64,000 bases of DNA from Chloroflexota bacterium (lineage in GTDB: Bacteria > Chloroflexota > Anaerolineae > Aggregatilineales > Phototrophicaceae): contig JACAES010000062.1 in the NCBI GenBank assembly GCA_013388735.1, forward strand, positions 5,525 through 69,524, in the 5' to 3' direction. Position 1 is the first letter of the stretch; each line of letters starts with the position of its first letter. The notes below the pieces were generated by a model. It saw nothing but the letters and a program-made list of their open reading frames with translations. It was not told the origin of the DNA and did not search any database. A program made the translations under genes and the position numbers. This document shows, piece by piece, positions 46,683-62,739 of the stretch.

Positions 46683-46749
46683 GGCTGGGCGGCCAGCAGC
46701 GAGGTCGGCGGCAGGCATCAAGCTATAGGCCGGCAGAAAGCATCGGTAA

Positions 46750-48306
46750 ATGGGCGCAACTCTTGAACTTGAAGGCATCAACAAGCAGTTCCCCGGCGTG
46801 AAGGCACTCGACAACGTGCGCTTTGATATGGCGGCGGGTGAAGTCCACGCCCTGCTGGGCGAAAACGGCGCGGGTAAATCCACGCTGATTAAAATCATCT
46901 CCGGCGTTTACAGACCGGACGGCGGCACGATCCGGTTGGACGGCGAAACGGTGCTGTTCAACACCCCGCGCGAGGCACAGCAGCGCGGCATTGCCACCAT
47001 CTACCAGGAACTCAGCCTGTACCCGGAACTGACGGTGGCGGAAAACATCTTCATGGGACACGCCCCACGCCGCAAGGTCGGGCCGGTGGACGTGCTGGAC
47101 TGGAAAGCCGCCAATACCAAAGCCCAGGAAATCCTGACCTCGCTGCATATCCACACCCTGGATGTGCGGCGCAAGGTAGGCACCCTGACGGTCGGCAACC
47201 GGCAGCGCGTGGAGATCGCCAAGGCGCTGTCGCTGAATGCGCGCATCCTCATCATGGACGAACCGACTGCCGCCCTGACCGAGGCCGACGTGGAGCAGTT
47301 GTTCAGCATTGTGCGGCTGCTGCGGGAGCGCGGCGTGGGCATCATCTACATCAGCCACCGTTTGCACGAAGTTTTTGAACTGGCCGACCGCGTGACCGTG
47401 CTGCGCGACGGGCAGTATGTCGGCACCAAGCTGGTCAGCGAAACCAGCGAAAACGACCTGGTAAGCATGATGGTCGGGCGCACGATTGACAACCTGTTCC
47501 CCAAGCTGGATACCGAAATCGGCAAACCGGTGCTGGAAGTCCGCAACCTGTACCGCCGACCGATGACACGCGGCGTCAGCTTCCAGCTTCGCGCCGGGGA
47601 AATCGTCGGCCTGGCCGGGCTGGTCGGCGCCGGCCGCAGCGAAGTGGCACAGGTGATCTTCGGCATCAACCCGGCGGAAAGCGGCGAAATCCTGATTGAC
47701 GGCCAGCCGGTGACGATCAAACACCCCGGCCAGGCCATGAATCACGGCATCGCCTACGTGCCGGAAGATCGCGGCACACAGGGATTGGTGCGGCAGATGC
47801 GCATCCGCGAGAACGTTTCGATGTCGGTGCTGCGGGCCATCCGCGCCGGCATATTCATCAACCGGCGCGAGGAGCGCAGCCTGGCGACCGGCATGATTAA
47901 ACAGCTTAACATCCGCGCCTACAGCGCCGAGCAGGTGGTCAACAAACTCTCCGGCGGCAACCAGCAGAAGGTCGTGGTCGGCAAATGGCTGGCGAGCAAA
48001 CCGCGCATCCTGATTATGGACGAGCCGACGCGCGGCATTGACGTGGGCGCAAAAGCAGAGATTCACCGCCTGATGAGCGAACTGGCAAAGGAAGGGCTGG
48101 CGGTGCTGATGATTTCCAGCGAACTGCCGGAAATCCTGGGCATGAGCGACCGCATCCTGGTGATGCGCGGCGGGCAGGTGGTGGCGGAATATTCGCGCGC
48201 GGAAGCCACCCAGGAACGCATCGCCGCCGCCATGATGAGTGAAACCGCCGGAAATGGCGCGCCGGAGTCGGAAACCGTAATGATAGATGAAAGCGAAACA
48301 GCATGA
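46750..48306 (+). CDS. sugar ABC transporter ATP-binding protein (RhaT-like)
   Basis: GENGAGKSTL, two NBDs, LSGGNQQK and DEPTRGIDVGAK. Confidence 0.93.
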   Translation: MGATLELEGINKQFPGVKALDNVRFDMAAGEVHALLGENGAGKSTLIKIISGVYRPDGGTIRLDGETVLFNTPREAQQRGIATIYQELSLYPELTVAENIFMGHAPRRKVGPVDVLDWKAANTKAQEILTSLHIHTLDVRRKVGTLTVGNRQRVEIAKALSLNARILIMDEPTAALTEADVEQLFSIVRLLRERGVGIIYISHRLHEVFELADRVTVLRDGQYVGTKLVSETSENDLVSMMVGRTIDNLFPKLDTEIGKPVLEVRNLYRRPMTRGVSFQLRAGEIVGLAGLVGAGRSEVAQVIFGINPAESGEILIDGQPVTIKHPGQAMNHGIAYVPEDRGTQGLVRQMRIRENVSMSVLRAIRAGIFINRREERSLATGMIKQLNIRAYSAEQVVNKLSGGNQQKVVVGKWLASKPRILIMDEPTRGIDVGAKAEIHRLMSELAKEGLAVLMISSELPEILGMSDRILVMRGGQVVAEYSRAEATQERIAAAMMSETAGNGAPESETVMIDESETA

Positions 48307-49310
48307 CAGCAACAACCGTTTCAGCCGCCCGGCAGTCCTCCCCAGGCTGGCTCAAAAACCTTCGGACGCTGGTCAGCGGGCAGGAAGGCGCGCTGACGCT
48401 GAGCCTGGTGCTGCTGGTGATCGTGGTCGGCACGGCCAACCCACGCTTCCTGGCCCAGCAGAACATCTCCGATATTCTGCTCAACAGTTCGTATATCGCC
48501 GTCGCCGCCATCGGCATGAGCGCGGTCATCATCTCCGGCAACATTGATATTTCGGTCGGCGCGATGATCGGCGTGCTGGCGACCATCAGCGGGCAGCTTT
48601 CCATCGTGCCGGGGATGCCGATATGGATTTCGTGGCTCGTGCCGCTGATCGTCGGCCCGCTGATCGGCGCAGTGACGGGTTTTCTGGTGGCGTATTTGCG
48701 CATCCCCTCTATCGTGGTTTCGCTGGGTATGATGAGCATCCTCAAGGGCGGCCTGATTCTGGCGACCGGCGGGGTGTGGATTTACAACATGCCGCCGGAA
48801 TATAAGCTGGCGCAGCAAAGTTTCCTCGGCCTGCCCGTGCCGGTCTATTTTATGCTCGTACTGACCATCCTGGCGGCGCTGTGGATGCGTTATTCCCCCT
48901 CCGGGCGCGCCATTTACGCCGTCGGCGGCAACAAAGAGGCCGCCCTGCTCTCCGGCATTTCGTCGCGCACAGTGCTGATGCGGGTGTTTATGTTCAACGG
49001 CCTGATGGTCGGCATCTCCAGCGTGCTGTTTGCCACCCAGTTCAGTTCGATTCAATCCACCGTTCCAAACGGGCTGGAACTGACCATCATCACGTCGGCG
49101 GTTGTCGGGGGTGTTAGCATCCTGGGCGGCACGGGTACGGTCATCGGCGCAACGCTGGCGACCATCCTGCTGCGGGCCATCGGCAACGGCATGATTTTTA
49201 TTAACGTTTCGGCCTACTGGCTGCAAGCGGTACAAGGCACGCTCATCCTGGTGACGGTGCTGATTGACCTGCTGCGCCGGCGCCGCCAGGCCGCGCAAAT
49301 TCGAGGGTAA
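48303..49310 (+). CDS. sugar ABC transporter permease (RhaP-like)
   Basis: IDISVG, IPSIVVSLG, GRAIYAVGGN and ELTIITSAVVGGVSILGG. Confidence 0.92.
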   Translation: MTATTVSAARQSSPGWLKNLRTLVSGQEGALTLSLVLLVIVVGTANPRFLAQQNISDILLNSSYIAVAAIGMSAVIISGNIDISVGAMIGVLATISGQLSIVPGMPIWISWLVPLIVGPLIGAVTGFLVAYLRIPSIVVSLGMMSILKGGLILATGGVWIYNMPPEYKLAQQSFLGLPVPVYFMLVLTILAALWMRYSPSGRAIYAVGGNKEAALLSGISSRTVLMRVFMFNGLMVGISSVLFATQFSSIQSTVPNGLELTIITSAVVGGVSILGGTGTVIGATLATILLRAIGNGMIFINVSAYWLQAVQGTLILVTVLIDLLRRRRQAAQIRG

Positions 49311-49315
49311 ACATC

Positions 49316-50320
49316 ATGGCAGTCACCGAAAGATCATCGCAACTGACCAAACAGTCCAACCCCATCGTCAGCCGTTTGCGGGCCGTTGTGTTGAGTAAAG
49401 AAGGCATCCTGTTTCTGATTATGATTGCGGCGATGTTTATTCTGTCGCTGCTGACCGACAAGTTCCTGACCACCAACAACCTGCTCAACCAGCTTCGTCT
49501 GGTGACGGAAATCGGGCTGATGGCGCTGCCGATGACCTTTATCATCATCACCGGCGGCATTGACCTGTCGGTCGGCTCGATCTTCGGCCTCAGCGCCATC
49601 GTCATGGGCTTCCTCTGGCAGGATTCCGGCTGGCCGCTGGAGCTTGCCATCATCATGTGTATAGTGGTAGGGACGATAGCCGGATTCATAAACGGCCTGT
49701 TTATCGTCCGGGTGGGCGTGCCGCCGCTCATCATGACGCTGGCGACACTGGCGCTGTACCGGGGCATGGCGCTGGGCGTCAGCGAGGCGCGTTCCGCGCG
49801 CGGTTTCCCGGACTGGTTTTTTGACCTGGGGCAACGGCAGTTCCTCGGCATCCCATCGCAGCTATGGATTTTGCTGATCGCGGCCATCATGGTCGGCATC
49901 ATACTGGCGCGGACGCCCTTCGGGCGCGGCATCTATGCCATGGGCAACAACGAACTGGCTGCGCGTTTTTCCGGCATTCCGGTCAGGCTGTACAAACTCG
50001 TCATTTATACCTTTTCGGGTTTTATGGCCGGGCTGGCGGGTTATATCTTCACCTCGCGCATCAGCACCACGCGCGCGGACATGGGTACAGGGCTGGAACT
50101 GGACGTGATCGCCGCCGTCGTGCTGGGAGGAACGAGCATCAACGGCGGCAGCGGCAGCATCGTCGGCACGATGATCGGCCTGATCCTGATTCAACTTCTC
50201 AAAAACGGGCTGCTGTTGGGCGGGGTCAAGGGCGACGCGACCATCGTCATCATCGGCGCGATTCTGATTCTGGCGATCCTCATCAACAACCTGGTGCAGC
50301 GCCGCACCGGCGGGGACTAA
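49316..50320 (+). CDS. sugar ABC transporter permease (RhaQ-like)
   Basis: GGIDLSVGS, VPPLIMTL, GRGIYAMGNN and ELDVIAAVVLGG. Confidence 0.92.
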   Translation: MAVTERSSQLTKQSNPIVSRLRAVVLSKEGILFLIMIAAMFILSLLTDKFLTTNNLLNQLRLVTEIGLMALPMTFIIITGGIDLSVGSIFGLSAIVMGFLWQDSGWPLELAIIMCIVVGTIAGFINGLFIVRVGVPPLIMTLATLALYRGMALGVSEARSARGFPDWFFDLGQRQFLGIPSQLWILLIAAIMVGIILARTPFGRGIYAMGNNELAARFSGIPVRLYKLVIYTFSGFMAGLAGYIFTSRISTTRADMGTGLELDVIAAVVLGGTSINGGSGSIVGTMIGLILIQLLKNGLLLGGVKGDATIVIIGAILILAILINNLVQRRTGGD

Positions 50321-50466
50321 GGCGGCGGCAGACAGGGGCGCAGACGCCACGCCTGCTTGCCAAAACCTGGGAAATGAGGTAAGCTAAGTACTGACTTTTG
50401 GAAATAGCATGGTAATTTTTCCATGTTATTCTACTTAGTGTATCAAAAAGTTAAGGAGGATTCCGT

Positions 50467-51672
50467 ATGTCTAAGAAAGTGTTTGCAGCCGTTTTAATGG
50501 TCGCCCTGGTGCTGTCGGTGGCGCTCGTGCCTGCCGTCGCGCAGGATGAGGAGCGGTGGGTCGGCGCGGATGACCTGCCGGTTTCGCCGCTGGAATGTCC
50601 TGAGGACGCTCCTGGCGCGGCGATGACGGAAGAACCGATGGAAGAGCCGGAAATGGCGGCGCTGGAATACAACGGCGGTCAACCCGTTAATGCGCCCGAC
50701 CTGGCCGGCCAGGAAATCGTCCTGGTGGATGTGCCGAAGCTGATCGGCATCGGTTACTTCAACGCCACGTCGCTGGGTATGCAGCAGGCTGCCGAAGAAC
50801 TGGGCAATGTCAAGGTGACGACCGACGGCCCGACCCAGGGTGACATCGTGCAGCAGGTGGCCTTCATCGAGCAGTACATCACTCAGGGCGTGAACGGCAT
50901 TCTGTTCGCCGCCAACGACCCGGTGGGCATTTCGCCCGTGCTGCGCCGCGCGCTGGAATCCGGCATTCACGTGGTTGGTTATGATGCCAACAGCGAGCCG
51001 GACGCCCGCGAGTGGTTCGTGAACCAGGCCGAGTTTAACGGCATCGCCAAAGCCAAGATTGACAGCATGGTGGCGGAAATCGGGCCGGAAGGTTCGTTCG
51101 CCATCGTCACCAGCTCCTTCACCGCCCCCAACCAGTCGCGCTGGATTTCGGAAATGTGGGCCTACGCCCAGAAATGCTACCCCGATCTGAAGTGGCTGGA
51201 GACGGTTGAGTCGGCTGAAGATCAGAACCTGGCCTTCCAGCAGACCCAGACGCTGCTGAACAAATACGGCCCCGACATGGACGGCGTCTTCGGTATGTCG
51301 AGTGTGGCGTTCCCCGGCGCGGCTGACGCAGTAGCGCAGGCCGGCCTGTGTTCGCCCGATGACGCCGCCGCCGATGTGGCCGCGCCCGATGAAGAATCGG
51401 CTGTCGCCATCGTCGGCCTCAGCACCCCCAACCAGATGCGCCCGTTTGTCGAGAACGGCTGCGTCGAGTCGGTCGTGCTGTGGAACCCGGTTGACCTGGG
51501 TTATGCCGCCGTGTACGTGATGCGCGCGGTCGTGGACGGCACGCTGACGCCCGAATCGACCGAGGTCGAGGCGGGACGTCTGGGTACGCTGCAAGTTGTC
51601 AACGGCAGCGAAATCCTGCTTGGGCCGCCCTTCGTCTATACGCAGGATAACATCGCAGACTTCGACTTTTAG
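50467..51672 (+). CDS. sugar ABC transporter substrate-binding protein (RhaS/LsrB family)
   Basis: signal peptide; PKLIGIGYF, DGPT, NQSRW, VGLSTPNQMRPFV and LWNP. Confidence 0.9.
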   Translation: MSKKVFAAVLMVALVLSVALVPAVAQDEERWVGADDLPVSPLECPEDAPGAAMTEEPMEEPEMAALEYNGGQPVNAPDLAGQEIVLVDVPKLIGIGYFNATSLGMQQAAEELGNVKVTTDGPTQGDIVQQVAFIEQYITQGVNGILFAANDPVGISPVLRRALESGIHVVGYDANSEPDAREWFVNQAEFNGIAKAKIDSMVAEIGPEGSFAIVTSSFTAPNQSRWISEMWAYAQKCYPDLKWLETVESAEDQNLAFQQTQTLLNKYGPDMDGVFGMSSVAFPGAADAVAQAGLCSPDDAAADVAAPDEESAVAIVGLSTPNQMRPFVENGCVESVVLWNPVDLGYAAVYVMRAVVDGTLTPESTEVEAGRLGTLQVVNGSEILLGPPFVYTQDNIADFDF

Positions 51673-51688
51673 TTCTAAGCCAGATATT

Positions 51689-51712
51689 GGGGGCGTGGTT
51701 CGCCGCGCCCCC
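51689..51712 (+). other. 10-bp GC hairpin without U-tract (mRNA stabiliser candidate)
   Basis: GGGGGCGTGG-TTCG-CCGCGCCCCC immediately after the SBP stop. Confidence 0.6.
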
Positions 51713-51767
51713 AGGCTGCTCCCCCCAGCAAAACTTGATGCATGAACATAAGCAAGAAAGCAGCACT

Positions 51768-52526
51768 ATGAGCGAAGCACCTACCCCACTGGTTGAACTC
51801 ACCCGCACCCTCGGCCAGCCACACCTCGATTATGTGATTATCGGCGAGGGCAACACCTCCTGCCGCGCCGACGATGAGTCGTTCTGGGTCAAAGCCAGCG
51901 GCCAGCAGATGCACAACATCTCGCCGGCTGGATTCGTGCAGGTGCGCTTCGATCCCATCCTCGCCATGCTGGATAAATCGCCCGGCGACCTGGCCGCGCA
52001 GAAAGCCGTCATGCAGGCAGCCAAAGTAGACCCGTCCGTGACCTTGCAGCCCTCGGTGGAAGTGAGCTTCCATGCCATGCTGCTGCGCGAGTGCGGCGTC
52101 TCGTACATCGGCCACACCCATGCGATGGCCGTCAACCGGATTATGTGCAGCCCGCGCGCGGCAGACTTTGCCAGCAAGCGTATGTTCCCCGATGAAGCCG
52201 TATTATGCGGCCCGGAATCGGTCTTTCTGCCCTATGTAGACCCCGGCCTGCCGCTGGCAGTGGCGATGCGCCAGCAGGTGCGCGCCTATCTGGACACATG
52301 GGGCGACGCGCCAAAGGTCATCCTGATGGCGAATCATGGGGTGATCGCCCTGGGGCAGACGCCCACCGAAGTTCTGAACGTCATGGCGATGTGCGTCAAA
52401 GCCGCGCACATCTTCATCGGCGCGTGTGTCGCCGGCGGGCCGGTCTTCATGGAGCCGTCCGAAGTGCTGCACATCTGCCGCAGACCGGACGAAATCTACC
52501 GGCGGCAGCAGTTCGTCGCGCGTTAA
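51768..52526 (+). CDS. class II aldolase, candidate L-rhamnulose-1-phosphate aldolase
   Basis: GEGNTS, VKASG, PSVEVSFH, GHTH and NHG all intact; last gene of the rha operon. Confidence 0.82.
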   Translation: MSEAPTPLVELTRTLGQPHLDYVIIGEGNTSCRADDESFWVKASGQQMHNISPAGFVQVRFDPILAMLDKSPGDLAAQKAVMQAAKVDPSVTLQPSVEVSFHAMLLRECGVSYIGHTHAMAVNRIMCSPRAADFASKRMFPDEAVLCGPESVFLPYVDPGLPLAVAMRQQVRAYLDTWGDAPKVILMANHGVIALGQTPTEVLNVMAMCVKAAHIFIGACVAGGPVFMEPSEVLHICRRPDEIYRRQQFVAR

Positions 52527-52643
52527 ACTGGTCTTATTCCCCCCTTGACCGCCGCACACGGTTGGAACAAGATAAGTTTCAGGTATCCGTTTCTGGCTGC
52601 CGGTGGCTTCGATTATCTTGCAGGTATGGGTAACGAAACGATC

Positions 52644-53222
52644 ATGAAAATCGGCGTGCTGGCGCTGCAAGGCGCATTCATCGAACATCTTAAAACGCTG
52701 CGGACACTGGGCGTCCAGGCCGCAGAAGTCCGCCTGCCGGACGACCTAGAAGGGCTGGACGGCCTCATCATCCCCGGCGGGGAAAGCACCACCATCGGCA
52801 AGCTGGCGGTGGAATACGGGCTGATCGAACCGCTGCGCCGTTTTGCCCGGCAAAACCCCACCTGGGGAACCTGCGCCGGGATGATCTTCCTGGCGAAAGA
52901 CATCGGCCACGACCGGCAGCCGATCCTGGGATTGATGGACATCACCGTCAGCCGCAACGCCTTCGGGCGGCAGATAGACAGCTTTGAAGTAGACCTGCCG
53001 ATTGCCGTCCTGGGCGACGCCCCCTTCCATGCCGTCTTCATCCGCGCCCCGGTAGTGACGGCGGTGCGCGGCAGCGCGCAGGTTCTGGCGCGTCTGGAAG
53101 ACGGGCAGATCGTGGCCGTACAGGAAGGCCACTGGCTGGCGACCGCTTTCCATCCAGAGCTGACCGCTGACAGCCGGCTGCACCAGTTTTTCATCCGTCT
53201 GGTCGGCGAAAAAGGCGCGTAA
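52644..53222 (+). CDS. pdxT: pyridoxal 5'-phosphate synthase glutaminase subunit
   Basis: IGVLALQG, IPGGESTT, GTCAG, RNAFGRQ, VFIRAP and FHPEL. Confidence 0.95.
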   Translation: MKIGVLALQGAFIEHLKTLRTLGVQAAEVRLPDDLEGLDGLIIPGGESTTIGKLAVEYGLIEPLRRFARQNPTWGTCAGMIFLAKDIGHDRQPILGLMDITVSRNAFGRQIDSFEVDLPIAVLGDAPFHAVFIRAPVVTAVRGSAQVLARLEDGQIVAVQEGHWLATAFHPELTADSRLHQFFIRLVGEKGA

Positions 53223-53313
53223 AAAGCCTTGATTTTGCCGTTCACAATTGCCGATAACGTGCTACAATACGCCCGCATTAATGGATAATGGCCCAGCATG
53301 TGGCGAGGTACGC

Positions 53314-53604
53314 ATGAGCATTTATGATGCGTTGATGTTGAGTCAAAACGGCAGTCCCTACGAAGACGAAGACCTGGAAGCCGACGAAGACCTGGACTTC
53401 GAGGACGAAGAACTGGAAGAAGTCGAGTTCGAGGACGAAGAGATTCTCGAAGAAGAAGAAATCGAAGAAGATGACGATTTCCTCGACGACGACGGCTACG
53501 ACATCTCCGAATTCGAGGACGACGACTACCTGTATGACGACGACGACGATCTGCTTGACGACGAGGAAGACGAAGACTTCTACGAAGACGAGGAAGATTA
53601 TTAG
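53314..53604 (+). CDS. small hyper-acidic, probably disordered protein
   Basis: GAGGT RBS; extended -10 TGcTACAAT at 53262-53270; 56 of 96 residues are D/E by my count, no K/R/H. Confidence 0.8.
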   Translation: MSIYDALMLSQNGSPYEDEDLEADEDLDFEDEELEEVEFEDEEILEEEEIEEDDDFLDDDGYDISEFEDDDYLYDDDDDLLDDEEDEDFYEDEEDY

Positions 53605-53733
53605 GCCGCGATAGGCCGCTGGCAAAACAGCACGCTGTTGCTGCGGTCGCCGTCCAGGGGCGAAGGGTCATCCTCTTCGGCGACCATTTTTGATTCTGCG
53701 CTTCAAATGGGCTGCTTCCCGGCTTATTTTCAT

Positions 53734-53771
53734 TTAGGTATTTGTTAGTTAGCCCCTCTAGATTATACAAT
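53734..53771 (+). promoter_or_regulatory. direct repeat TTAGG-N6-TTAGT over the -35 position, plus -10 TACAAT, for the EPS operon
   Basis: repeats at 53734-53738 and 53745-53749; TACAAT at 53766-53771. Confidence 0.5.
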
Positions 53772-53810
53772 AGACTCATCGTCGGCTGCGTTTAGCGAGG
53801 TATCGGCGTT

Positions 53811-55817
53811 GTGAAGCAAGCATCTTCCCCTGTGACTGCGGTCTTCAGGCTACTGCTTAAGTGGTGGTGGCTGATCGCGCTATCGGTCGCACTCGGCGCC
53901 GGCGTCGGGTTCTTCATCCGTACTCAGCAGCCGAATATCTATTTTGCCAAAACCACCATTCTCTTCGGCCAGAACCTCGGCAGCGCCACAACGGCTACCG
54001 GGGGATCGCTGACACAGCTTACCGACATGATTACCATTTACTCCGGCCTTGTGCGGCGGCCTACCATCCTGGAGCCGGTGATTGATGACCTGGGGCTGGG
54101 CGTCAGCGTGGACACCCTGAACGGCATCATGGCCGTCAACCAGGTAGAAGACCTGCCGCTGCTGGAAATCGTGGTCGCGGATACCCGCCCCGACCGCGCC
54201 GCCGACATCGCTAACCGGGTGGCGCAGGAACTTATCAACCAGAGTCCCACCGAACAGATTTCCCAGGAGACCGAGTTCAAGCGCGAGCAGCTCCGCAGTC
54301 TGCAATCGCAGATCGAAGAACTGCAAAACGCCTACGACGCCAACATCGCTAACGGGGCAAACCTCACCTCCGCATTTGCCATCGCCCAGAATTTACAGGA
54401 GCGCGCCGGCATCCTGGAGAACCTGCAAGGGCTGCGAAGTCTGTACGCCGAAATGAGCGCCGGGCTGGCCGACCAGACCAATCTGATGCGCATCTTTGAA
54501 TTCGCCGATCCCGAAACCGCGCCCCTGGTCACCAGTTCGATCATTGGGGTGGTGCTGGCCGGGGCTGCCGGCCTGCTGCTGTCAGTAGCGACCATCGTCA
54601 TGATCGCGTATTTCGACGACCGACTGCTGTGGCAGGAAGGCATGGAAACCATCCAGGGCGTCAGGGTGCTGGGGCCGCTGGGGGTTGTTCCGCGCAGCAA
54701 ACTGCCGCTGTACGTGGTGACGATGCCGGATGCTATCGAAAGCGAAGTGCTGCGGCAGCTGCGCGCCAAGCTGGTGCTGGCCGCCGGCGGCGATGTGCCG
54801 AAAATGGTCACAGTCACCAGCTACGACTCCGGCGACGGCAAAACCATCACGTCTTCCAACCTGGCGCTGGTGTTCGCCCATGCCGGTCTGCGGACGCTGT
54901 TGGTGGATGGCGACATTCGCAAGGGCGACCTGCACGAACTGTTCCGCCTGCCCAACGTGATGGGGCTTTCCGACATCCTTGCCAGCCGCGAAGAGATCGG
55001 CGTACTGGCTTCGCGGGCGCTGCTTGACAGCGGTTATGACCACCTGACCATCCTCACATCGGGGCGTTCCAACGCCGACCCGGCGGCGCTTTTAAGCTCC
55101 ACGCGTTTTACCCGGCTGATCACGCGGCTAAAAACCCAGTTCGATGTCATCGTCATGGATTCCGTGCCGACTATCGGCGGGCCGGATTCGGCCTTTATGG
55201 CGGAAATCAGCGATGGCGTGCTGATTATCGTGGACTCGCGCCGCACGACCGAAAAAGCCCTCAAGCGCACCTTGCAGGCGCTCCAGCAGGCGCGCCGGGC
55301 GAACATCTTCGGCGTGGCCTTCAACCGGGTACATTTGCAGGCGACGGCTTCCCACAACCAGCCCTACTACCGGCGCACACTGTCGTTAAGCCCGGAACGG
55401 CTGAACCGCGAATTGGTCAGCGCCAGCAAACGCCGGTTTGGTCTCAATCGCCATATCATCACCGATAAACAGGGCGAGCGCATGTATTCCTTGAAGGCGT
55501 GCGCCATTCACCTGGGTATCACGGTCGAAACCGTCCAGAACTGGGTCAAAACCGGCTACCTGAATACGGTGCGCGTGGGACGCCGCCGCTGGGTGCGGGA
55601 AAGCGAAATTCAACTGCTGCTGGAACGCCTGCCGCGCAACCCGGTCAGCCTGGACGGCCAGGACGATCACCTGCCGGAAGTCAACGGCCTGAAGGCTTCT
55701 CCTGAACCGTCGCTGCCGGCCCTCCTGCGGGACCAGCGGGACGCGCTGCTGGACTACATGCGCGACCCGCAGCCGCTCGAAAAAGCCGACGACGAACCCG
55801 ATACCCCGGCCAGTTAG
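53811..55817 (+). CDS. Wzc-type polysaccharide co-polymerase / BY-kinase with C-terminal excisionase-like HTH
   Basis: two TMs flanking a coiled-coil loop; Walker A GDGKT, A' VDGD, B VIVMD; HTH YSLKACAIHLGITVETVQNWVKTGYL..VRVGRRRWV. Confidence 0.85.
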   Translation: MKQASSPVTAVFRLLLKWWWLIALSVALGAGVGFFIRTQQPNIYFAKTTILFGQNLGSATTATGGSLTQLTDMITIYSGLVRRPTILEPVIDDLGLGVSVDTLNGIMAVNQVEDLPLLEIVVADTRPDRAADIANRVAQELINQSPTEQISQETEFKREQLRSLQSQIEELQNAYDANIANGANLTSAFAIAQNLQERAGILENLQGLRSLYAEMSAGLADQTNLMRIFEFADPETAPLVTSSIIGVVLAGAAGLLLSVATIVMIAYFDDRLLWQEGMETIQGVRVLGPLGVVPRSKLPLYVVTMPDAIESEVLRQLRAKLVLAAGGDVPKMVTVTSYDSGDGKTITSSNLALVFAHAGLRTLLVDGDIRKGDLHELFRLPNVMGLSDILASREEIGVLASRALLDSGYDHLTILTSGRSNADPAALLSSTRFTRLITRLKTQFDVIVMDSVPTIGGPDSAFMAEISDGVLIIVDSRRTTEKALKRTLQALQQARRANIFGVAFNRVHLQATASHNQPYYRRTLSLSPERLNRELVSASKRRFGLNRHIITDKQGERMYSLKACAIHLGITVETVQNWVKTGYLNTVRVGRRRWVRESEIQLLLERLPRNPVSLDGQDDHLPEVNGLKASPEPSLPALLRDQRDALLDYMRDPQPLEKADDEPDTPAS

Positions 55818-55838
55818 TCAGGATTTGAGACGCTAACC

Positions 55839-57293
55839 ATGCTGGTTTCGTTATTTGGTCGAAGAACGCTGATCGGCAAGCTGCGCTATTATTTTCTGGA
55901 ACGCCACTACAGCCAGACAATTCGCTATGGATTGATCTTCCTGTGCCTGGCGCTGACGCTGGCTTCGACGGTGTTGTTTCGCGGCGTGATCTTCGTCGGC
56001 ACAGATTTCCTGCCGGGGCTGATCCCGGTGCTGGCTTTCGTGGGGCTGGCGGCGGTGGTGGTGCTTTATAACCATCTGGAAATGGCGCTCCTGCTGGTCG
56101 TCGTCGTTTCGACCCTGCTGGCCGATGGCATCGGCACCGGCACCGGGACAAAAATCACCTTCACTTTTTTGCTGGCTATTCTGGTGGCCGGCCTGTGGTT
56201 ATTTCGGTTGGTAGTCGTTGATCGCCATATCACCCTGCGCCCATCGCCGGCGAACGCTCCCGCCATCATCTTCATTATAACGGTGGTCATCTCGACCGTC
56301 TGGAGTACGGTGTTCGTAGATCAGGAAGTCAGTTATCTGCTGAATGACAAGTTGTTCCCCCGCCTGATGACGGCGGCGGTACTGATTATCTCGCCGCTGA
56401 CCATGCTGATCTTCGCCAGAGAAGTGAAATCCATCCGAAGCATCCGGTTTATCATCTGGTGGTTCATCCTTGTGGGAACAATTTTTGGCGCTTACCGGCT
56501 TGCTTTCAACAACCTGCCTGCACCTTTGAACATGCGCGGGCAGTTCCCCACCTGGGTGGGTGTGCTGGCAATCGGGCAGATGCTTTTTAACACCCGGCTG
56601 CACCCGGTGTTGCGGCTGTTCCTGGGTGTCGTCGGTGGTGTCTGGTTTTACATCACCATCGGGCTGGGCATCAGCTGGTTAAGCGGGTGGGTGCCGCTGA
56701 CATTCACCTTCGGTATCCTGCTGCTGCTGTACTCGCGCAAGCTAACCGCCCTGGCGATGGTCGGTCTGCTGATCTTCTTGCTCCTGAACACCCAGTTGGT
56801 GGATGAAATCGTCGGCGCCGAAACCAACGAATCCGGCGATACCCGGACGGAAGCCTGGGAACGCGCGCTGAACATTTATGATGACCACTTTCTGTTCGGT
56901 ACCGGCCCGGCGGGTTATGCCTTCTACTTCGCCACCTATCTGGGGCCGGTTGGGTTTTCTCATAACAACTACATTGACATCATCTCTCAGACCGGCCTGC
57001 CGGGATTTCTCGCCTTTGTAGCCATCTGGGTTGGGATTGCGGTTGTTTCGGTACGAACCTGTTTTATCGTGCCGAAGGGAGGCTTTGAGCAGGCCGCCGC
57101 CTATGCGCTCCTGGCGGCCAATCTATCCACCTTCATTACGATGGCGTTGGGCGACTGGGTGACGCCGTTTACCTACACGCAGGGGCTGGGGGGTATAGAC
57201 TATACGATTTGGGCGTGGATTCTGGGTGGGCTGACGATTGCGTTCCACCACATTCTGCGATCCCGTCAGAGCGGCGAGGCAGTATCAACATGA
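55839..57293 (+). CDS. O-antigen ligase / Wzy polymerase family protein
   Basis: about 12 TMs, R..AW..AL, FGTGPAGY and SHNNY loop. Confidence 0.82.
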   Translation: MLVSLFGRRTLIGKLRYYFLERHYSQTIRYGLIFLCLALTLASTVLFRGVIFVGTDFLPGLIPVLAFVGLAAVVVLYNHLEMALLLVVVVSTLLADGIGTGTGTKITFTFLLAILVAGLWLFRLVVVDRHITLRPSPANAPAIIFIITVVISTVWSTVFVDQEVSYLLNDKLFPRLMTAAVLIISPLTMLIFAREVKSIRSIRFIIWWFILVGTIFGAYRLAFNNLPAPLNMRGQFPTWVGVLAIGQMLFNTRLHPVLRLFLGVVGGVWFYITIGLGISWLSGWVPLTFTFGILLLLYSRKLTALAMVGLLIFLLLNTQLVDEIVGAETNESGDTRTEAWERALNIYDDHFLFGTGPAGYAFYFATYLGPVGFSHNNYIDIISQTGLPGFLAFVAIWVGIAVVSVRTCFIVPKGGFEQAAAYALLAANLSTFITMALGDWVTPFTYTQGLGGIDYTIWAWILGGLTIAFHHILRSRQSGEAVST

Positions 57294-58831
57294 AGCGCAT
57301 CGGCATTGTTATTCTGATCTTGTTAGGCGTTATTCCGCCCCTGACCGCGCAGGGGCAGCAGCCATCTGAAACAACCTGGTCATCCCCGCTCTTTCTGGGT
57401 ACCGGCTGGTGGCAGAGTGTGACGATAGACCAGGAAGGGCGTCTGCACGTGGCCTGGTACGGTGGGCTTGAACTCGACGACGGCCTGTCCCATGACATCC
57501 TGGCCTATACCAACCGCGCCCCCGACGGCACATGGACTCCCCTGAACGATGTCATCTACACCGGCGACGGCGGTTATACAGTTCGCAATGCTCTGGCCGT
57601 CACCAGTGACGGCATTCTGCACACGGTCTTTCGAGCCGTCACCAAACACCAGTACAGCCGCGCCCCCGCCCGCGCCGCCGACCAGGCCGGACTGTGGCAA
57701 GCGCCGCTCGACCTGAATGACGGCGGTTATTATATTGATCTGACAGTCGGCGAGGGTGATGTGCTGCATCTGCTGTACAGCGGCGGCCTGGGCGCAATCA
57801 GCCGGGGGCAAACCATCAACTATGCGGAACTTAGCCCGTGCGCCTTCTGCAATGATATGTTCTACCGCCGTTCAGATGATGGCGGGAGAAGCTGGAGCGC
57901 GCCCTACCCGCTCTCATTTGAAGCCGAAACCGGCTCTGACCGCATGGATATTTTTGAAGGGCAGACCGGAAACCTGTACGCTGTCTGGGACGAGGGATAC
58001 GACTGGTATGCCGGGCGCGGCGCGGCGCTCGATGTGCGCGTAGCCTATTCGCTGGACAGCGGCCTCACCTGGTCAGAGCCGATTATCCTGGACGGCGGCG
58101 GGTTCGCCGATCGAAAGCCGATTCAGATCGCGGGGGTCGAACTGATGGATGGGTCGCTGATGGTCGTATGGCGCTACTCCACCGATTTCGACCGTAACAT
58201 TTACTACCAGATCACCGGCGACCTGGGGGAAACCTGGACACAGCCACAGCCGATTCCCGGTTTTGTCACGCGCAGCATCCTGGATACCCCGCTGGACGAT
58301 TACGAGCTGGTGATTGACCGCCTGGGCAACGTGTCGCTGTTCGCCACCGGCCAGCCTAACGCGCAGGCCCGGTTGAACGCAGCCCTGTACCATGTTCAGT
58401 ATCGCAATGGCAACTGGCTTGCCCCACAGCGCCTGTTTTACCTGCGCGAAGAACGGCCTGAGTGGCCGAAAGCTGCCGTCGGGCCGGACAACACCCTGCA
58501 CCTGACGTTTTTTACACGCGGCCTGCGCGAAGACGCCAGAAGCCTGTCCGAAGACACCGGCTTCCGCATGTATTACATGAACCTGCCGGGCCGGCTGCCC
58601 TCGACTGCCCAGGCGTTCAGGCCGACCGAAACACCGCGCCCCACACCAACCATCGTTCAGGACCTGCCGCCGACCACAACCCCTTTCCCAACCGAACAGC
58701 CGATCACCGAAATTGTTCAGTTGACGACAACGGACAATTACGCTTCGCAGATTGTGCTGGGCGGTTTGTTCGCTGCCGGGCTGCTGTGCGCCATCATCCT
58801 GGCCGCTGTCCGGTTCATCGGTCGGAAATGA
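57290..58831 (+). CDS. secreted BNR/Asp-box beta-propeller (sialidase-like) with C-terminal membrane anchor
   Basis: Asp boxes RSDDGGRSW, YSLDSGLTW and ITGDLGETW; signal peptide; Pro/Thr linker; C-terminal TM plus basic tail. Confidence 0.75.
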   Translation: MKRIGIVILILLGVIPPLTAQGQQPSETTWSSPLFLGTGWWQSVTIDQEGRLHVAWYGGLELDDGLSHDILAYTNRAPDGTWTPLNDVIYTGDGGYTVRNALAVTSDGILHTVFRAVTKHQYSRAPARAADQAGLWQAPLDLNDGGYYIDLTVGEGDVLHLLYSGGLGAISRGQTINYAELSPCAFCNDMFYRRSDDGGRSWSAPYPLSFEAETGSDRMDIFEGQTGNLYAVWDEGYDWYAGRGAALDVRVAYSLDSGLTWSEPIILDGGGFADRKPIQIAGVELMDGSLMVVWRYSTDFDRNIYYQITGDLGETWTQPQPIPGFVTRSILDTPLDDYELVIDRLGNVSLFATGQPNAQARLNAALYHVQYRNGNWLAPQRLFYLREERPEWPKAAVGPDNTLHLTFFTRGLREDARSLSEDTGFRMYYMNLPGRLPSTAQAFRPTETPRPTPTIVQDLPPTTTPFPTEQPITEIVQLTTTDNYASQIVLGGLFAAGLLCAIILAAVRFIGRK

Positions 58832-58911
58832 TGGGTTTTAGCCCATCGTAAGGGTATACCGGGTAGAGTTCAAGGCGTATCCCTGATCTTATAATGGAGG
58901 ATGCGCCGGAT

Positions 58912-60888
58912 ATGACGCAGGCGCTCAACGCAAAAACGATCTGGGCTTTCATCAGGGAAGCCAGCTTCACAATCACGCCGCATCCGGTCAAACGGCGTGA
59001 TTGGTTCGTCCTGGCATTCATCCTCATCGTCGGCGCTGTGCCGCGTTTCGCCTATCCCGAAGCCATTGACTGGAGCAAAGACCATTCCGATATGGCGATG
59101 ATGGCGCAGGACATCGTGGACGGCAAAGGCATTCCGCTGGTCGGGCAGCCCTCATCGGCGGTCATTCCCCATTCGCCGTTTTATATTTATATCCTGGTGC
59201 CGCCCTACGCCTTGACCGATGACCCGGTCATCGTCACCATGTTCATTACCGCGCTCGATCTGGTCGCCATAGGGCTGCTGTGGTTTCTGGCCTTCCGTTA
59301 CTTCGGCCCGGCTGCGGCGCTGGCCGCCGGGCTGGCCTACGCCGCGAATCCCTGGGCGATTGGTTTCAGCCGCACCATCTGGTCAGGCGATCATCGTGTC
59401 CCGCTGCTGCTGCTGGCGGTGCTGCTGGGTTTTTATGGCTTTCTGGAAGGGAAACGGTGGGCGCAAATCCTGTGCCTGCCCATCCTGCTGATCGCCCTGC
59501 AAGTCCATTTTGCGGCCTGGGCGCTGCTGCCGGTATACCTGTGGCTGGTCTGGGCGGGGCGCGCCCGCACCACCCGGCGAACGCTGCTGATAAGCGTGAT
59601 CCTGGGCATTCTGGTGATCCTGCCCTTCACCATCGGCACGATCCAAACGCTGACTTCCGATACCCGACTGGTGACGGATTTCCAGGGGCAGGATCGGGAA
59701 CTTTCCATCCGCAATCTCGCTAAACCCTGGGGGCAGGTGGTGTGGCTGGCGACCGGGCTGGGATCGGAACAGTACGCAGCGCGCGAAACCGCCGCCGAAC
59801 TGATGGCAGAAATCAACCTGCCGGTGTTCCTGTGGGTTCTGCTGGGCGCGGCGGTGGCTGCCGGTTTAATCGGCATCTGGAAATACGCGCCGCCGCCGGT
59901 CGGCATCTTCGTGCTGCTGTGGGCGTTCCTGCCGCCGCTGGTTTTTACGATACCGATTGTGGACGTGTACCCGCACTACTTCATACCGAGCATCCCCGTT
60001 TACAGCCTGCTGGCCGGCATCGGCATCCGCCGGATGATAGAGGCGCTGAACGCCCGGCTGCCGGCTGCCAGGGCGGTCGTCGGGGCGCTGTTTGCGATCA
60101 TCTTCCTCACACAGATTTTGTTCAACAACGCCCTGACGGTTTATGCCGATACCCACTTCACGGCAGGACAGTTCGGCTCCGGCACGCCCATGCACTATAT
60201 GAAGAATGTAGCCGCCGAATTACAGCAGCATGAGGATATTGTGGTCATCGCCAGTGACGACTGGCTGGATTTCAGCCGCACCGGCTCCTGGATGTGGGCG
60301 CCTTTCCTGCGCGATACAGCGGCCTGTCTGCGCGACATCCGTCCCGGCCAGAATGTCGCCGTCTTCCCCGACGGTCCGTTCGCGGCGACCTTCGCCCCGC
60401 GCGTCCCGGCAGCGCCGGTACTCGACGCCCTGTATCGGGCAGGGACGCCGACCGACATCCCGCTCAGGCCGGGCGAAGGTATCTACAGCATTTACAACTT
60501 TGCGCAGGCCCCAGCCTGGAACGGGCCGGAACTGACGCCGGTCACGCCGGCGCGCTTCGAAAACGGCGTCACCCTGACCGGCTACCACCTCAGCAGCGAG
60601 CAGATCACCCTGGAATGGAACCTGCCGGAAAAAAGCAAAACCAACTATCAGTATTGGATCGAAGCCCTGGATGCCGACGGGCAGTCGTTGGGCCGCCTAG
60701 AAGCCGACTTCTGGCCCGGCATCAACTGGTGCGCGGGCGACCGGCTGCTGACCTGGGCGGACGCCGGCATCTCCGCCGATCTGGACACGCTGCGGATCGG
60801 GCTGCAAGCCGCCGGGGCGGATACGCCGCTGAACATCCTTGACCAATCCGGGCAGACCGCGGGCAGCAGCGTGGACATCCGGCCATGA
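58912..60888 (+). CDS. GT-C fold glycosyltransferase (ArnT-like) with C-terminal beta-sandwich
   Basis: PLVGQPSS, HSPFYIY, AANPWAIGFSRTIW and YPHYFI; GGAGG RBS at 58896 favours the 58912 start. Confidence 0.8.
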   Translation: MTQALNAKTIWAFIREASFTITPHPVKRRDWFVLAFILIVGAVPRFAYPEAIDWSKDHSDMAMMAQDIVDGKGIPLVGQPSSAVIPHSPFYIYILVPPYALTDDPVIVTMFITALDLVAIGLLWFLAFRYFGPAAALAAGLAYAANPWAIGFSRTIWSGDHRVPLLLLAVLLGFYGFLEGKRWAQILCLPILLIALQVHFAAWALLPVYLWLVWAGRARTTRRTLLISVILGILVILPFTIGTIQTLTSDTRLVTDFQGQDRELSIRNLAKPWGQVVWLATGLGSEQYAARETAAELMAEINLPVFLWVLLGAAVAAGLIGIWKYAPPPVGIFVLLWAFLPPLVFTIPIVDVYPHYFIPSIPVYSLLAGIGIRRMIEALNARLPAARAVVGALFAIIFLTQILFNNALTVYADTHFTAGQFGSGTPMHYMKNVAAELQQHEDIVVIASDDWLDFSRTGSWMWAPFLRDTAACLRDIRPGQNVAVFPDGPFAATFAPRVPAAPVLDALYRAGTPTDIPLRPGEGIYSIYNFAQAPAWNGPELTPVTPARFENGVTLTGYHLSSEQITLEWNLPEKSKTNYQYWIEALDADGQSLGRLEADFWPGINWCAGDRLLTWADAGISADLDTLRIGLQAAGADTPLNILDQSGQTAGSSVDIRP

Positions 60889-60918
60889 TTTTAGGCCGCC
60901 TGCGCGCCGCCGCAAACG

Positions 60919-60959
60919 TTAGGTTTTTGTAAGGGCTTTTCGCTACGCTTCTTTATAAT
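60919..60959 (+). promoter_or_regulatory. direct repeat TTAGG-N6-TAAGG at the -35 region, plus -10 TATAAT
   Basis: repeats at 60919-60923 and 60930-60934; TATAAT at 60954-60959; 13/16 identical to the 53734 site. Confidence 0.5.
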
Positions 60960-60989
60960 TCCCATAACAATCAGAACGGGCAATCCACT

Positions 60990-61421
60990 ATGGCTGTACT
61001 GAAAACCGACCAACCCTTCACCGTTTCGGAAAAACCCAAAACCAGCGCCAACCTGCAAGCGTTGGGGCTGGTGCTGGCGAGTGTGGCCTTTGGCGCGGTC
61101 GGCCAGCTTGTCCTTAAGGCCGCCATGAACAGCCTGGGGGAACTTCAGCTTTCGCTGGAAACGCTGCTGGCGATGGCGACCAGCCCGCTGCTGCTGGTGG
61201 GCGTTGCCATCTTCGCCATCAGTACGCTGCTGTGGCTGCTGGCGCTGATAAAAGCCGATCTCAGCTTCGCCTATCCCTTTCTGAGCCTGACGTATATCGC
61301 CGTCCTCATCGGCGGCGCGGTGCTGTTCCACGAGCAGGTGACGTTTGACCGGGTGTTGGGTTTCGCGGTGATCGTCACCGGCGTGTGGATCGTCGCGCGC
61401 AGCGAAAAGCGGTCGGCCTGA
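60990..61421 (+). CDS. EamA/SMR-type small transporter (ArnE/ArnF-like flippase)
   Basis: four TMs, GQLVLK, DLSFAYPFLSL and LFHEQVT. Confidence 0.82.
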   Translation: MAVLKTDQPFTVSEKPKTSANLQALGLVLASVAFGAVGQLVLKAAMNSLGELQLSLETLLAMATSPLLLVGVAIFAISTLLWLLALIKADLSFAYPFLSLTYIAVLIGGAVLFHEQVTFDRVLGFAVIVTGVWIVARSEKRSA

Positions 61422-61422
61422 A

Positions 61423-62739
61423 ATGCGTATCGGAATTATCGGCGGCGGTTTGATGGGTATCGCCCTGGCTTACTTTTTGACGGAAGCCGGGGAACAGGTG
61501 ACCGTCCTGGAGCAGAGTGATAAGCTGGGCGGGCTGAACGGCCAGCTTAGCTTTGGCGATGGGCTGGCGGTCGCGCGTTACCAGCACGCCATCCTGCCCA
61601 ATGATGAAACCACACGCCGCCTGTGCGCCCACCTGGGGTTGGAAAACGAACTGGTTTTTGATGATGTCAAAACCGGCTTCATCCACGATAACCGGCTTTA
61701 CCCGATGTCCACCCTGCTGGACTTTTTATCGTTTGCCCCGCTCAGTTTCGGCAGCCGCCTTCAACTGGGCAGTATGCTGGTGCGGGCGCGCCGCTACCGC
61801 GACTGGCAGGCACTCGACCGGCTGCCCGTTAAAAACTGGTTGGTGAAGATGAGCGGCCAGGAAGCCTTCGAGCGCATCTGGCAGCCGCTGCTGGAAACCA
61901 AATTTGACGGCGCTTACGAAACCATCCCGGCCACTTACGTGTGGGCCTGGCTGAACCGGATGCTGGCCGTCCGCCGTATCCCTCACTTCAAAAGCCGCGT
62001 GGGCTACCTGCGGCGCGGGCATCATTCGCTCATTCAGGCGTTGGCGGACGACTTCACTGCGCGCGGCGGCCAGGTGGAAACCCAGGTGCGCGTGCGCGAA
62101 ATCGTCGTCGGGAACGGGCGCGTTCAGCAGGTTCGCACGCATAACGGCCTGCTGGAATTCGACGCCGTTGTGGCGGCGGTCGCTACCCCGGTTTTCGCGC
62201 GGCTCATGCCCGGCGCGGATACCGCCTATCTGGAACAGTTAAGCCGCGAGAAGTACCTCGGCCTGATCTGCCCGGTGATGGTGCTGGACAGGCCGCTTTC
62301 CGGCTACTGGACGCTGAACCTGACCGACCCGAACAGCCCGTTTTCCAGCATCATCGAAACGCCGCACCCGGAACAGGACGGATACCACATCGTTTATCTG
62401 CCCCGTTACACCGCGCCGGATAACGACTGGATGGGCGTTTCTGACGACGACATCCGGGAAGCCTGGCTATCGCATCTGCGGCAGGTTTTCCCGCAGATGC
62501 ACGGCAAAGACCCGCTCTATTTTTCGGTCAGTCGGTCGCGCTATGTCGAGCCGGTCTATTCGATTCATGACACCGACAAGATTGCGCCGGTGCAGACGCC
62601 CTACCAGGGGTTGTATCTGGCGAATACCGGCCAGGTCTACCCGCAGCTTCCGTCCAGTGAGGCGGTTATCGTCCAGGCGCAGCGGGTCAGTCAGATGATT
62701 CACCGGCAGCGGCTTGTGCCTGCCGCCGTCTTGAGTTAA
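61423..62739 (+). CDS. FAD/NAD(P)-dependent oxidoreductase (amine oxidase / protoporphyrinogen oxidase fold)
   Basis: IGIIGGGLMG Rossmann motif, E....LGG and YQHAI; a family often found in glycan clusters. Confidence 0.82.
   Translation: MRIGIIGGGLMGIALAYFLTEAGEQVTVLEQSDKLGGLNGQLSFGDGLAVARYQHAILPNDETTRRLCAHLGLENELVFDDVKTGFIHDNRLYPMSTLLDFLSFAPLSFGSRLQLGSMLVRARRYRDWQALDRLPVKNWLVKMSGQEAFERIWQPLLETKFDGAYETIPATYVWAWLNRMLAVRRIPHFKSRVGYLRRGHHSLIQALADDFTARGGQVETQVRVREIVVGNGRVQQVRTHNGLLEFDAVVAAVATPVFARLMPGADTAYLEQLSREKYLGLICPVMVLDRPLSGYWTLNLTDPNSPFSSIIETPHPEQDGYHIVYLPRYTAPDNDWMGVSDDDIREAWLSHLRQVFPQMHGKDPLYFSVSRSRYVEPVYSIHDTDKIAPVQTPYQGLYLANTGQVYPQLPSSEAVIVQAQRVSQMIHRQRLVPAAVLS

Follow-up and report, generated by a model that had tools for sequence, protein, structure and literature searches.

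Why does a membrane kinase of polysaccharide assembly continue into a domain of the kind that binds DNA? This question is raised by a gene, here called wzc-HTH, in a 64,000-nucleotide stretch of a Chloroflexota bacterium (Anaerolineae; Aggregatilineales; Phototrophicaceae; assembly GCA_013388735.1, contig JACAES010000062.1, positions 5,525 to 69,524), which was analyzed as a whole and is called the window below. The gene (53811-55817 of the window; its parts, its candidate control sites and the genes following it all lie on the plus strand) is a single open reading frame (ORF) with a GTG start codon and encodes 668 residues that combine a co-polymerase, a tyrosine kinase of the bacterial type (BY-kinase) and a winged helix-turn-helix (HTH) domain. 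As master regulators, BY-kinases govern how capsules and exopolysaccharides are assembled, and to our knowledge their phosphorylation cycle has been connected to gene expression solely via separate substrate proteins. An initial annotation of the window had described the gene as a fusion of a Wzc/BY-kinase with an excisionase- or MerR-like domain that could act as a membrane-tethered one-component system. Here we report that the fusion is real, that its C-terminal part is predicted to fold as a winged HTH, and that a direct repeat is found at its own promoter and at a second promoter of the same gene cluster.

The N-terminal part of the protein has the layout of a class 2a polysaccharide co-polymerase (PCP-2a), i.e. 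a Wzz-like extracytoplasmic domain between two transmembrane helices, fused to a kinase, as seen with Pfam, AlphaFold2 (AF2) and Foldseek. Transmembrane helix 1 (53859-53927, approximately residues 17-39, WWWLIALSVALGAGVGFF) was modeled by AF2 as a helix of residues 19-39 with a predicted local distance difference test score (pLDDT) above 90. It is followed by the extracytoplasmic domain (53928-54539, residues 40-243), which consists of long antiparallel helices in the AF2 model and matches TIGR01006, and by transmembrane helix 2 (54540-54614, residues 244-268), also a helix in AF2; the Pfam Wzz match covers residues 11-94. The model was built from 119 sequences with a mean pLDDT of 85.4, and in Foldseek the full model matched the structure of full-length Wzc from cryo-electron microscopy with an E-value of 5.9e-26.

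The BY-kinase domain follows at 54708-55340 (residues 300-510). It scores 128.5 bits with the NCBIfam BY-kinase model TIGR01007 (cutoff 108), residues 331-523 match Pfam AAA_31/CbiA, and MinD and ParA-family models match it weakly. Foldseek superimposes the domain on CapA1B1 (4jlv) with a template modeling (TM) score of 0.94, an rmsd (root-mean-square deviation) of 1.9 Å and 29% identity. All catalytic motifs are present, and their conservation was assessed in 119 full-length homologues: the Walker A motif S337-YDSGDGK344-T (residues 337-345) with S337, G343 and K344 invariant, the Walker A' motif LLVD366-G-D368-I-R370 (VDGDIRKG, residues 363-372) with D366, D368 and R370 invariant, the Walker B motif VIVMD450 (residues 446-453) with D450 invariant, and the ExxRxxR motif E312-VL-R315-QL-R318 (residues 312-318) with E312 and R315 conserved in at least 90% and R318 invariant. 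Judged by these motifs, the kinase is catalytically complete. Since they are complete and conserved, a pseudokinase of the EcpK type (PMC12004946) was ruled out.

Directly after the kinase, a disordered segment (residues 511-524, pLDDT below 50) bears a short tyrosine cluster at 55353-55370, which reads H515-N-Q-P-Y519-Y520 in the window protein and Y-N-Q-P-Y-Y in the family consensus. Y519 is found in 119/119 and Y520 in 118/119 homologues, and position 515, a histidine here, is a tyrosine in 108 of the 119. The initial annotation had spoken of a cluster reduced to one YY pair; this holds for the window protein, while the conserved cluster of the family is Y-x3-Y-Y. The cluster therefore has two to three tyrosines and, with approximately 150 residues following it, does not lie at the extreme C-terminus as is usual for a BY-kinase. 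We know of no characterized BY-kinase in which it is internal.

The remainder of the chain comprises five parts. A basic linker (55371-55472, residues 521-554) has a net charge of +6, compared with a family mean of +4, and a conserved SPExLxxE helix; AF2 places a short helix at residues 528-537. The winged HTH domain (55473-55637, residues 555-609), of the Xis/BldC/MerR (HTH_17) type, has the topology beta-beta-alpha-alpha-beta-beta-alpha. After a variable, gap-rich linker of about 25-28 residues with low model confidence (55638-55712, residues 610-634), a conserved amphipathic helix LPxLLRxQRxALLxY (55713-55763, residues 635-651) and an acidic, variable tail (55764-55814, net charge -5) complete the protein. 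In the helix, L639 (91%), R643 (99%), A645 (97%) and L647 (100%) are conserved among the homologues; its pLDDT ranges from the 50s to the low 70s, and it is confined to the clade of the window protein. The positions given in the initial annotation for GDGKT (from 54831), for Y519-Y520 (55365-55370) and for M558-E605 (55482-55625) are correct.

Several lines of evidence agree on the nature of the C-terminal domain. The best domain models are Pfam HTH_17 and NCBIfam TIGR01764 ("excise"). HTH_17 matches residues 567-606 with 24.7 bits when the whole protein is searched, which is under the gathering score of 27, and with 27.6 bits when the isolated C-terminal 148 residues are used; the C-termini of 19/20 family members match it, with a best E-value of 1.9e-9. 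TIGR01764 gives 20.5 bits (cutoff 28.8), and MerR and MerR_1 match weakly in 3/20 and 7/20 family members, respectively. AF2 models residues 549-606 with a pLDDT of 92-94 as strand 557-560, helices 561-568 and 572-581, strands 587-589 and 592-596, and helix 597-606. A profile of the C-terminal sequences found Pukovnik Xis (3.1e-4), BldC (1.4e-3) and RacA (3.7e-3) in the PDB, and Foldseek with the isolated C-terminal model retrieved BldC (TM 0.77) and Pukovnik Xis (rmsd 0.9 Å), followed by RdfS, RacA and the MerR-family protein NmlR. The Foldseek probability is 1.00 for Xis, BldC and RdfS; the E-values are all at least 5e-3, owing to the small size of the domain. The claim of an Xis/HTH_17-type winged helix is supported, in that the extension is predicted to fold in this way. 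The domain resembles BldC in fold and perhaps also in how it binds, yet it is not a member of the BldC family, since NCBIfam HTH_BldC (NF033787) gives 12.9 bits against a cutoff of 77 and the domain is fused and not stand-alone.

All of the closest solved folds (BldC, Pukovnik Xis, RdfS, RacA and NmlR) belong to DNA-binding proteins. The residues equivalent to those by which BldC makes its backbone (phosphate), kink and wing contacts are kept (T574 in 72%, W578 in 99%, K/R580 in 67%, R/K588 in 96% and R592 in 89%). The HTH domain and the linker before it each have a mean net charge of +4 across the family, with +4 to +5 for the domain. We therefore infer that the domain binds DNA.

In principle, the extension could be an assembly or sequencing artefact, in which a missed stop codon or a frameshift joins two genes. 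This reading, to which we assign a practically negligible probability, is refuted by conservation. A second, independent contig from the same hot-spring metagenome (17 kb, depth 15.7) carries a gene that is identical throughout with zero indels, and both the homologues (more than 119, at 44-86% identity) and a sister clade with 35% identity share the reading frame through the HTH. A protein search returned 207 relatives, and the figures for the family refer to the best 120 of these, which have 632-683 residues, cover the query to 88-100% and are 44-100% identical to it; 119 full-length homologues retain every part of the architecture. One ORF, an identical independent contig and these homologues together confirm the proposed fusion: an HTH fold is predicted, the homologues continue beyond the YY pair and there is no stop-codon error.

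It had also been suggested that the in-frame ATG at 55482 might yield a free HTH protein. If so, the fusion itself could be incidental. A weak purine-rich stretch does precede this codon. However, residue 558 is a leucine in 94/119 and a methionine in 7/119 homologues, and the codon is ATG in 4/36 loci, TTG in 8/36 and no start codon in 24/36. A start at this position would also deprive the HTH domain of its first strand, which is conserved, and of its turn at G555, and stand-alone versions were not seen except as fragments at contig ends. As the ATG is not conserved, a free HTH protein is very unlikely.

To assess how far the fusion is spread, we scanned species-representative genomes with the full-length alignment and obtained 43 related loci, of which 41 belong to the family of the window protein and align out to approximately residue 650-666. 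Forty of these are labeled Chloroflexota (Anaerolineae, Aggregatilineales or "Phototrophicaceae"); the closest family genomes are Anaerolineae bacterium CFX8 (85%) and AMX57 (86%). One member (L027, JAPUDW010000011.1) lies on a metagenome-assembled genome (MAG) labeled Bacteroidetes, probably owing to an error in binning. A profile of the C-terminal region, used in an exhaustive HMMER search, showed that the full module of linker, HTH and terminal helix is confined to this family: the 11 matches with E-values up to 1e-30 are three full-length family representatives, seven short proteins (115-288 residues) resembling contig-end fragments, and one unrelated protein with multiple HTH repeats. The same search led to P0251, which is 35% identical to the window protein over residues 11-604 and has the identical domain order. 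Using P0251 as query, we found a sister clade of at least 268 clusters of 585-715 residues from Chloroflexota MAGs; nearly all of the best 120 of them have PF12728. In these proteins, a tyrosine cluster (1-6 tyrosines, mostly 2-4), a basic linker and a canonical HTH_17 domain follow one another, and the protein ends soon thereafter. Their HTH_17 domain scores up to 45.9 bits and has the recognition helix T-x-[KR]-R-W. Since both clades keep the order of kinase, tyrosine cluster and HTH, it appears from these comparisons to be an old and common architecture of Chloroflexota and not a peculiarity of the window; any rarity implied earlier does not apply. That the fusion had not been characterized agrees with full-text literature searches, which gave no paper on a BY-kinase fused to a DNA-binding domain. 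In databases, the proteins are merely named "polysaccharide biosynthesis tyrosine autokinase" or "capsular exopolysaccharide synthesis family protein". The fusion is thus annotated by domain, common in one phylum and uncharacterized.

A candidate target of the domain lies in its own gene cluster. An alignment of the regions upstream of wzc-HTH in related loci revealed a conserved TTTAGG-N4-TGTTAGTT followed by TAGAyTGTAcAAT, which forms a -10 block. In the window, this element (site 1, 53733-53750) reads TTTAGG-tatt-TGTTAGTT, with the unit (G/T)TTAG(G/T) repeated directly at a period of 11 bp, 77 nt before the start codon. A promoter scan gave a sigma-70-like promoter TTGTTA-18-TACAAT at 53742-53771, whose -35 hexamer is located inside repeat 2 of site 1. 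A second copy (site 2, 60918-60934), GTTAGG-ttttt-GTAAGG with the family consensus GTTAGGctTTTGTtAGGC, lies ahead of a second sub-operon. The general form is (G/T)TTAGG-N5-GTTAG(G/T), whose 11-bp period corresponds to one helical turn. Rfam models gave nothing over 53200-61500 at E-values up to 1, so that no known RNA motif accounts for the conserved upstream element.

The repeat is restricted to these positions. The strict pattern has one match in the 64-kb window, compared with 0.07 expected, and occurs once per locus in 22 loci, each time upstream of wzc-HTH. We also scanned 38 non-redundant loci (1.57 Mb, both strands) with the relaxed pattern TTAGG-N4-[TG]GT[TA]A[GT]. All 39 matches are on the coding strand, 28 at the wzc-HTH promoter and 11 at the second sub-operon promoter, and none of this sequence outside the two promoter positions matched. 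Site 1 is thus present in 28/38 loci, 64-95 nt upstream of wzc-HTH. The initial annotation had named the regions at 53734, 60919 and 23700 as places where the HTH might bind. The first two coincide with sites 1 and 2, while the region around 23700 is AT-rich and has no repeat match, so that it drops out as a target. The proposed one-component system gains circumstantial support from the two cluster-specific repeats and from the co-variation described next.

Ten of the 38 loci have no repeat. A neighbor-joining tree places them in two clades apart from each other, both with a repeat-bearing locus as sister. Wing position 593, equivalent to Arg48 of BldC with its minor-groove contact, is aspartate or glutamate in 10/10 of these loci and in 0/28 repeat-bearing ones. 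This co-variation, with loss of the repeat and gain of an acidic wing residue in both lineages, is suggestive, not proof. A common 9-mer that could serve as a variant motif was not found in the repeat-less subclade, which has scattered TGTTAG units alone. As a further observation, a hybrid histidine kinase of approximately 930 residues (NIT-HAMP-HisKA-HATPase-REC-REC) is encoded just upstream of wzc-HTH in most loci of the larger repeat-less subclade (L024, L025, L028, L029, L040 and L041, at approximately 6.1-9.2 kb, e.g. 6445-9234 in L025); none was seen upstream in repeat-bearing loci.

A different explanation, which we consider unlikely, is that the HTH binds DNA without operator specificity, either tethering the assembly machine to the nucleoid, in the way that RacA anchors the chromosome, or with DNA as a scaffold or activator of trans-phosphorylation as for YabT, and that the repeats belong to another regulator. 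RacA is indeed among the closest folds and sequence matches, linker and wing are basic, and the positions with which BldC reads bases are variable or acidic. The kinase domain is a member of the MinD/ParA group of P-loop proteins, and DNA serves as a matrix for some ATPases of the ParA type. YabT, described as a membrane kinase activated by DNA, provides a precedent (PMC6333020). Non-specific binding nevertheless leaves the cluster-specific repeat and its co-variation with wing position 593 unexplained. Also, the recognition-helix residues are conserved inside subclades and do not drift freely.

Alternatively, the HTH may have become a protein-interaction or autoregulatory module, contacting for example a substrate, a phosphatase, glycosyltransferases or the neighboring kinase subunit, while the repeats are read by an unlinked OmpR-type regulator or an alternative sigma factor. 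The geometry of the repeats agrees just as well with a pho-box-like site, the HTH_17 score is borderline in the clade of the window protein, and a conserved helix (residues 635-651) follows the HTH. In addition, a gene for an OmpR-type regulator accompanies wzc-HTH in the sister clade. Yet the close structural relatives all bind DNA, the backbone-contact and wing residues are conserved, and the canonical HTH of the sister clade, with up to 45.9 bits, is hard to square with lost DNA binding. A search of the 64-kb window with a hidden Markov model (HMM) made from sister-clade regulators found no OmpR-type regulator, and most loci of the window's clade have none adjoining wzc-HTH. We consider this alternative improbable as well.

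In the sister clade, the kinase gene has one or two OmpR-type response-regulator genes upstream, which adjoin it in L047 (543-1247) and L049 (8152-8961) and lie several genes away in L048 (2883-4381). This suggests a two-layer control without counterpart in the window's clade. The TTAGG repeat is absent from the sister-clade loci L047 and L048.

Taken together, we tentatively favor the explanation that wzc-HTH is a membrane-tethered one-protein regulator that links the oligomeric and phosphorylation state of the kinase to transcription of its own cluster, although we give it slightly less than an even chance. The protein would act as a PCP-2a-type co-polymerase and tyrosine autokinase heading a Wzy-dependent exopolysaccharide cluster, and the predicted DNA target of its HTH would be the repeat with 11-bp period over its own -35 region and at the second cluster promoter. 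BY-kinases cycle between a ring and phosphorylated monomers, so that the local number of HTH domains and the nearby negative charge would vary with the state of the kinase. In the unphosphorylated ring, several HTH domains would come together on the cytoplasmic side. With phosphorylation, two to three phosphotyrosines would stand beside the basic linker, about 35 residues before the HTH, and the oligomer could break up. Ring formation and phosphorylation would thereby alter cooperative occupancy of the two-repeat operator, and operator occupancy would track the state of polysaccharide assembly and feed back on the cluster. The -35 hexamer is weak, the spacer has 18 bp and the repeat covers the -35 region, which makes activation a little more likely than repression. 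Genes for membrane proteins stay near the membrane during their expression, and for this reason it is plausible that a regulator bound to the membrane acts on the operon that encodes it. In a more specific version, the ring would be a multivalent DNA platform in which unphosphorylated HTH domains bind the repeats cooperatively, and autophosphorylation and/or disassembly would release the DNA; we regard this version as less likely than not.

Several points weigh against regulation by the kinase itself. Direct repeats with an 11-bp period overlapping the -35 region are also the classic geometry of response regulators of the OmpR/PhoB type, and the gene for one could lie in another part of the genome; in the sister clade, an OmpR-type regulator gene is found immediately upstream of wzc-HTH. 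Position 577, equivalent to the base-reading Arg30 of BldC, is mostly glutamate, asparagine or aspartate in the window's clade, which would be expected for a different target sequence and yet is also a caution. Site 2 is detectable in just 11/34 loci, at the same relative position and on the plus strand, and the co-variation of the repeat with residue 593 amounts to two evolutionary events in the neighbor-joining tree. A membrane-anchored protein reaches only DNA near the membrane. Finally, just two to three tyrosines are available, compared with approximately four phosphotyrosines required for loss of the octamer of E. coli Wzc (PMC8285477). About a tenth of our confidence lies with readings other than those discussed here.

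The genes following wzc-HTH are those of a polysaccharide cluster. A membrane protein of the Wzy_C family (polymerase or ligase; 55839-57293, Pfam Wzy_C 2.6e-15) begins 22 nt after it and neighbors wzc-HTH likewise in the related loci L001, L002 and L003. The sole RNA match, a 223-nt metatranscriptome contig from soil, stems from a related organism, is 95-99% identical to 55713-55927 and extends across the junction of the wzc 3' end and wzy; it is too small for transcript mapping and gives a weak hint that a close relative co-transcribes both genes. The conserved third gene encodes a BNR-repeat protein (sialidase-like beta-propeller, Pfam BNR_2; 57209-58831). As listed, with a TTG start at 57209, this ORF shares 85 nt with the end of the Wzy_C gene; its true start is probably an in-frame codon downstream of 57293.

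Between the BNR gene and site 2, the window has a gene for a polytopic membrane protein of 664 residues with a weak PMT_2-like match (58894-60888). In the two related loci with gene calls, this position is taken by an ORF of 150 residues (L001) or by nothing (L002). Owing to this additional gene, site 2 is located at +7.1 kb from wzc-HTH in the window and at approximately +5.1 kb (+5.0 to +5.2 kb) elsewhere. The first gene past site 2 encodes a small EamA-like membrane protein (60990-61421, below the Pfam threshold), followed by an FAD amine-oxidase-like oxidoreductase (61423-62739), a conserved member also present in L001 and L002, and by a GT4 glycosyltransferase (62774-63997), after which a second GT4 gene and a Bac_transf initiating transferase follow in related loci. 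From wzc to Bac_transf, the conserved block showed no further DNA-binding domain, and a Wza-type outer-membrane partner was not seen among the genes annotated in the cluster. The signature C.GN.CRS of low-molecular-weight protein tyrosine phosphatases (Wzb) had no match in the window and in the 10-kb flanks on both sides of 46 loci, where this crude pattern was searched and phosphatases of the PHP type were not.

Directly upstream of the wzc-HTH promoter, an extremely acidic ORF of approximately 90-97 residues (53311-53604, plus strand) carries the motif DDDGYDISEFEDDDYLYD and a YEDEEDY end. It has no Pfam match and is conserved in L004 (9451-9804) and L001 (9562-9837), while L002 has a small cysteine-rich ORF instead. 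Its tyrosines in acidic context make it a possible kinase substrate, and its charge a possible DNA mimic for the basic HTH. Further upstream, 41963-53222 codes for a fused class II aldolase/short-chain dehydrogenase, an FGGY sugar kinase, an M23 peptidase, a sugar transporter of the ATP-binding cassette type (ATPase, two permeases and binding protein), a class II aldolase and PdxT. Linkage of these genes with the polysaccharide cluster is not kept from locus to locus.

If regulation by wzc-HTH itself holds true, no path leading from polymer assembly at the membrane to transcription could be shorter, and a new class of membrane-tethered regulator would be added. In the version of a multivalent platform switched by phosphorylation, it would be the first case of a BY-kinase serving as a transcription factor itself. 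Hundreds of protein clusters in Chloroflexota have the architecture; they come from filamentous organisms of hot springs, activated sludge and anammox reactors, and the fusion may therefore be a general control of matrix or sheath polysaccharides in these bacteria.

Among known systems, Wzc of E. coli (K30 and K-12; PDB 7NHR, 9R62) is closest in overall design. Both proteins have two transmembrane helices, a Wzz-like domain, a P-loop kinase with Walker A, A' and B and ExxRxxR motifs and a disordered tyrosine segment directly after the kinase, and both belong to Wzy-dependent polysaccharide clusters. The extracytoplasmic domain of wzc-HTH is short in comparison, its two to three tyrosines (5-7 in Wzc) are internal, and it alone continues for approximately 150 residues with linker, winged HTH, conserved helix and acidic tail. 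The unphosphorylated Wzc is an octamer with each tyrosine tail in the active site of the neighbor, and progressive phosphorylation dissolves the ring (PMC8285477). CapAB and EpsAB, the PCP-2b systems of Firmicutes, share the closest kinase fold (4jlv) and a compact extracytoplasmic domain; there, membrane and kinase parts are separate proteins, whereas wzc-HTH is one chain. In B. subtilis, exopolysaccharide is sensed outside the cell by EpsA, and its synthesis is under feedback from EpsB (PMC4117945). Feedback in CapAB/EpsAB runs via phosphorylation of a glycosyltransferase, and no DNA-binding domain is involved. The logic parallels our proposal, in which the readout would be transcriptional and inside one polypeptide.

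For the HTH domain, BldC of Streptomyces (6AMA, 6AMK) is the best structural match (TM 0.77, 31% identity), with the shared topology alpha1-alpha2-beta1-beta2-alpha3, backbone contacts by Thr, Trp and Lys, and a basic wing. Direct repeats are bound by BldC and proteins of its type as head-to-tail multimers (PMC5859096), which matches the direct-repeat form of the candidate site. In contrast, BldC is a free cytoplasmic protein of 68 residues, the period of its repeats is 9-10 bp instead of 11 bp, and its base-reading residues Arg30 and Lys26 are not kept in wzc-HTH, which has E, N or D and a variable residue at these positions. Excisionases (Pukovnik Xis gp37, 4J2N; RdfS, 8DGL) include the best profile match (E-value 3.1e-4; rmsd 0.9 Å over 47 columns), whereas wzc-HTH has no integrase or mobile-element context and its domain is fused to a membrane kinase. 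Classical MerR proteins have a long coiled-coil helix for dimerization directly after the winged HTH and an effector-binding region, in place of which wzc-HTH has a variable linker and then a helix of 17 residues.

ToxR, CadC and TcpP unite, in one membrane-spanning polypeptide, an extracytoplasmic domain for sensing with a winged-helix DNA-binding domain in the cytoplasm. The analogy is functional only: their DNA-binding domain is N-terminal and of the OmpR type, with one transmembrane helix and no kinase, while that of wzc-HTH is C-terminal and of the MerR/Xis type, with two helices and an autokinase. BY-kinase activity has been linked to DNA binding and transcription through Etk, which phosphorylates RpoH (PMC4007543), and through PtkA, which is described as phosphorylating FatR (PMC3814354). 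In both cases, a separate substrate is phosphorylated in trans, whereas in wzc-HTH the DNA-binding domain lies within the kinase chain itself.

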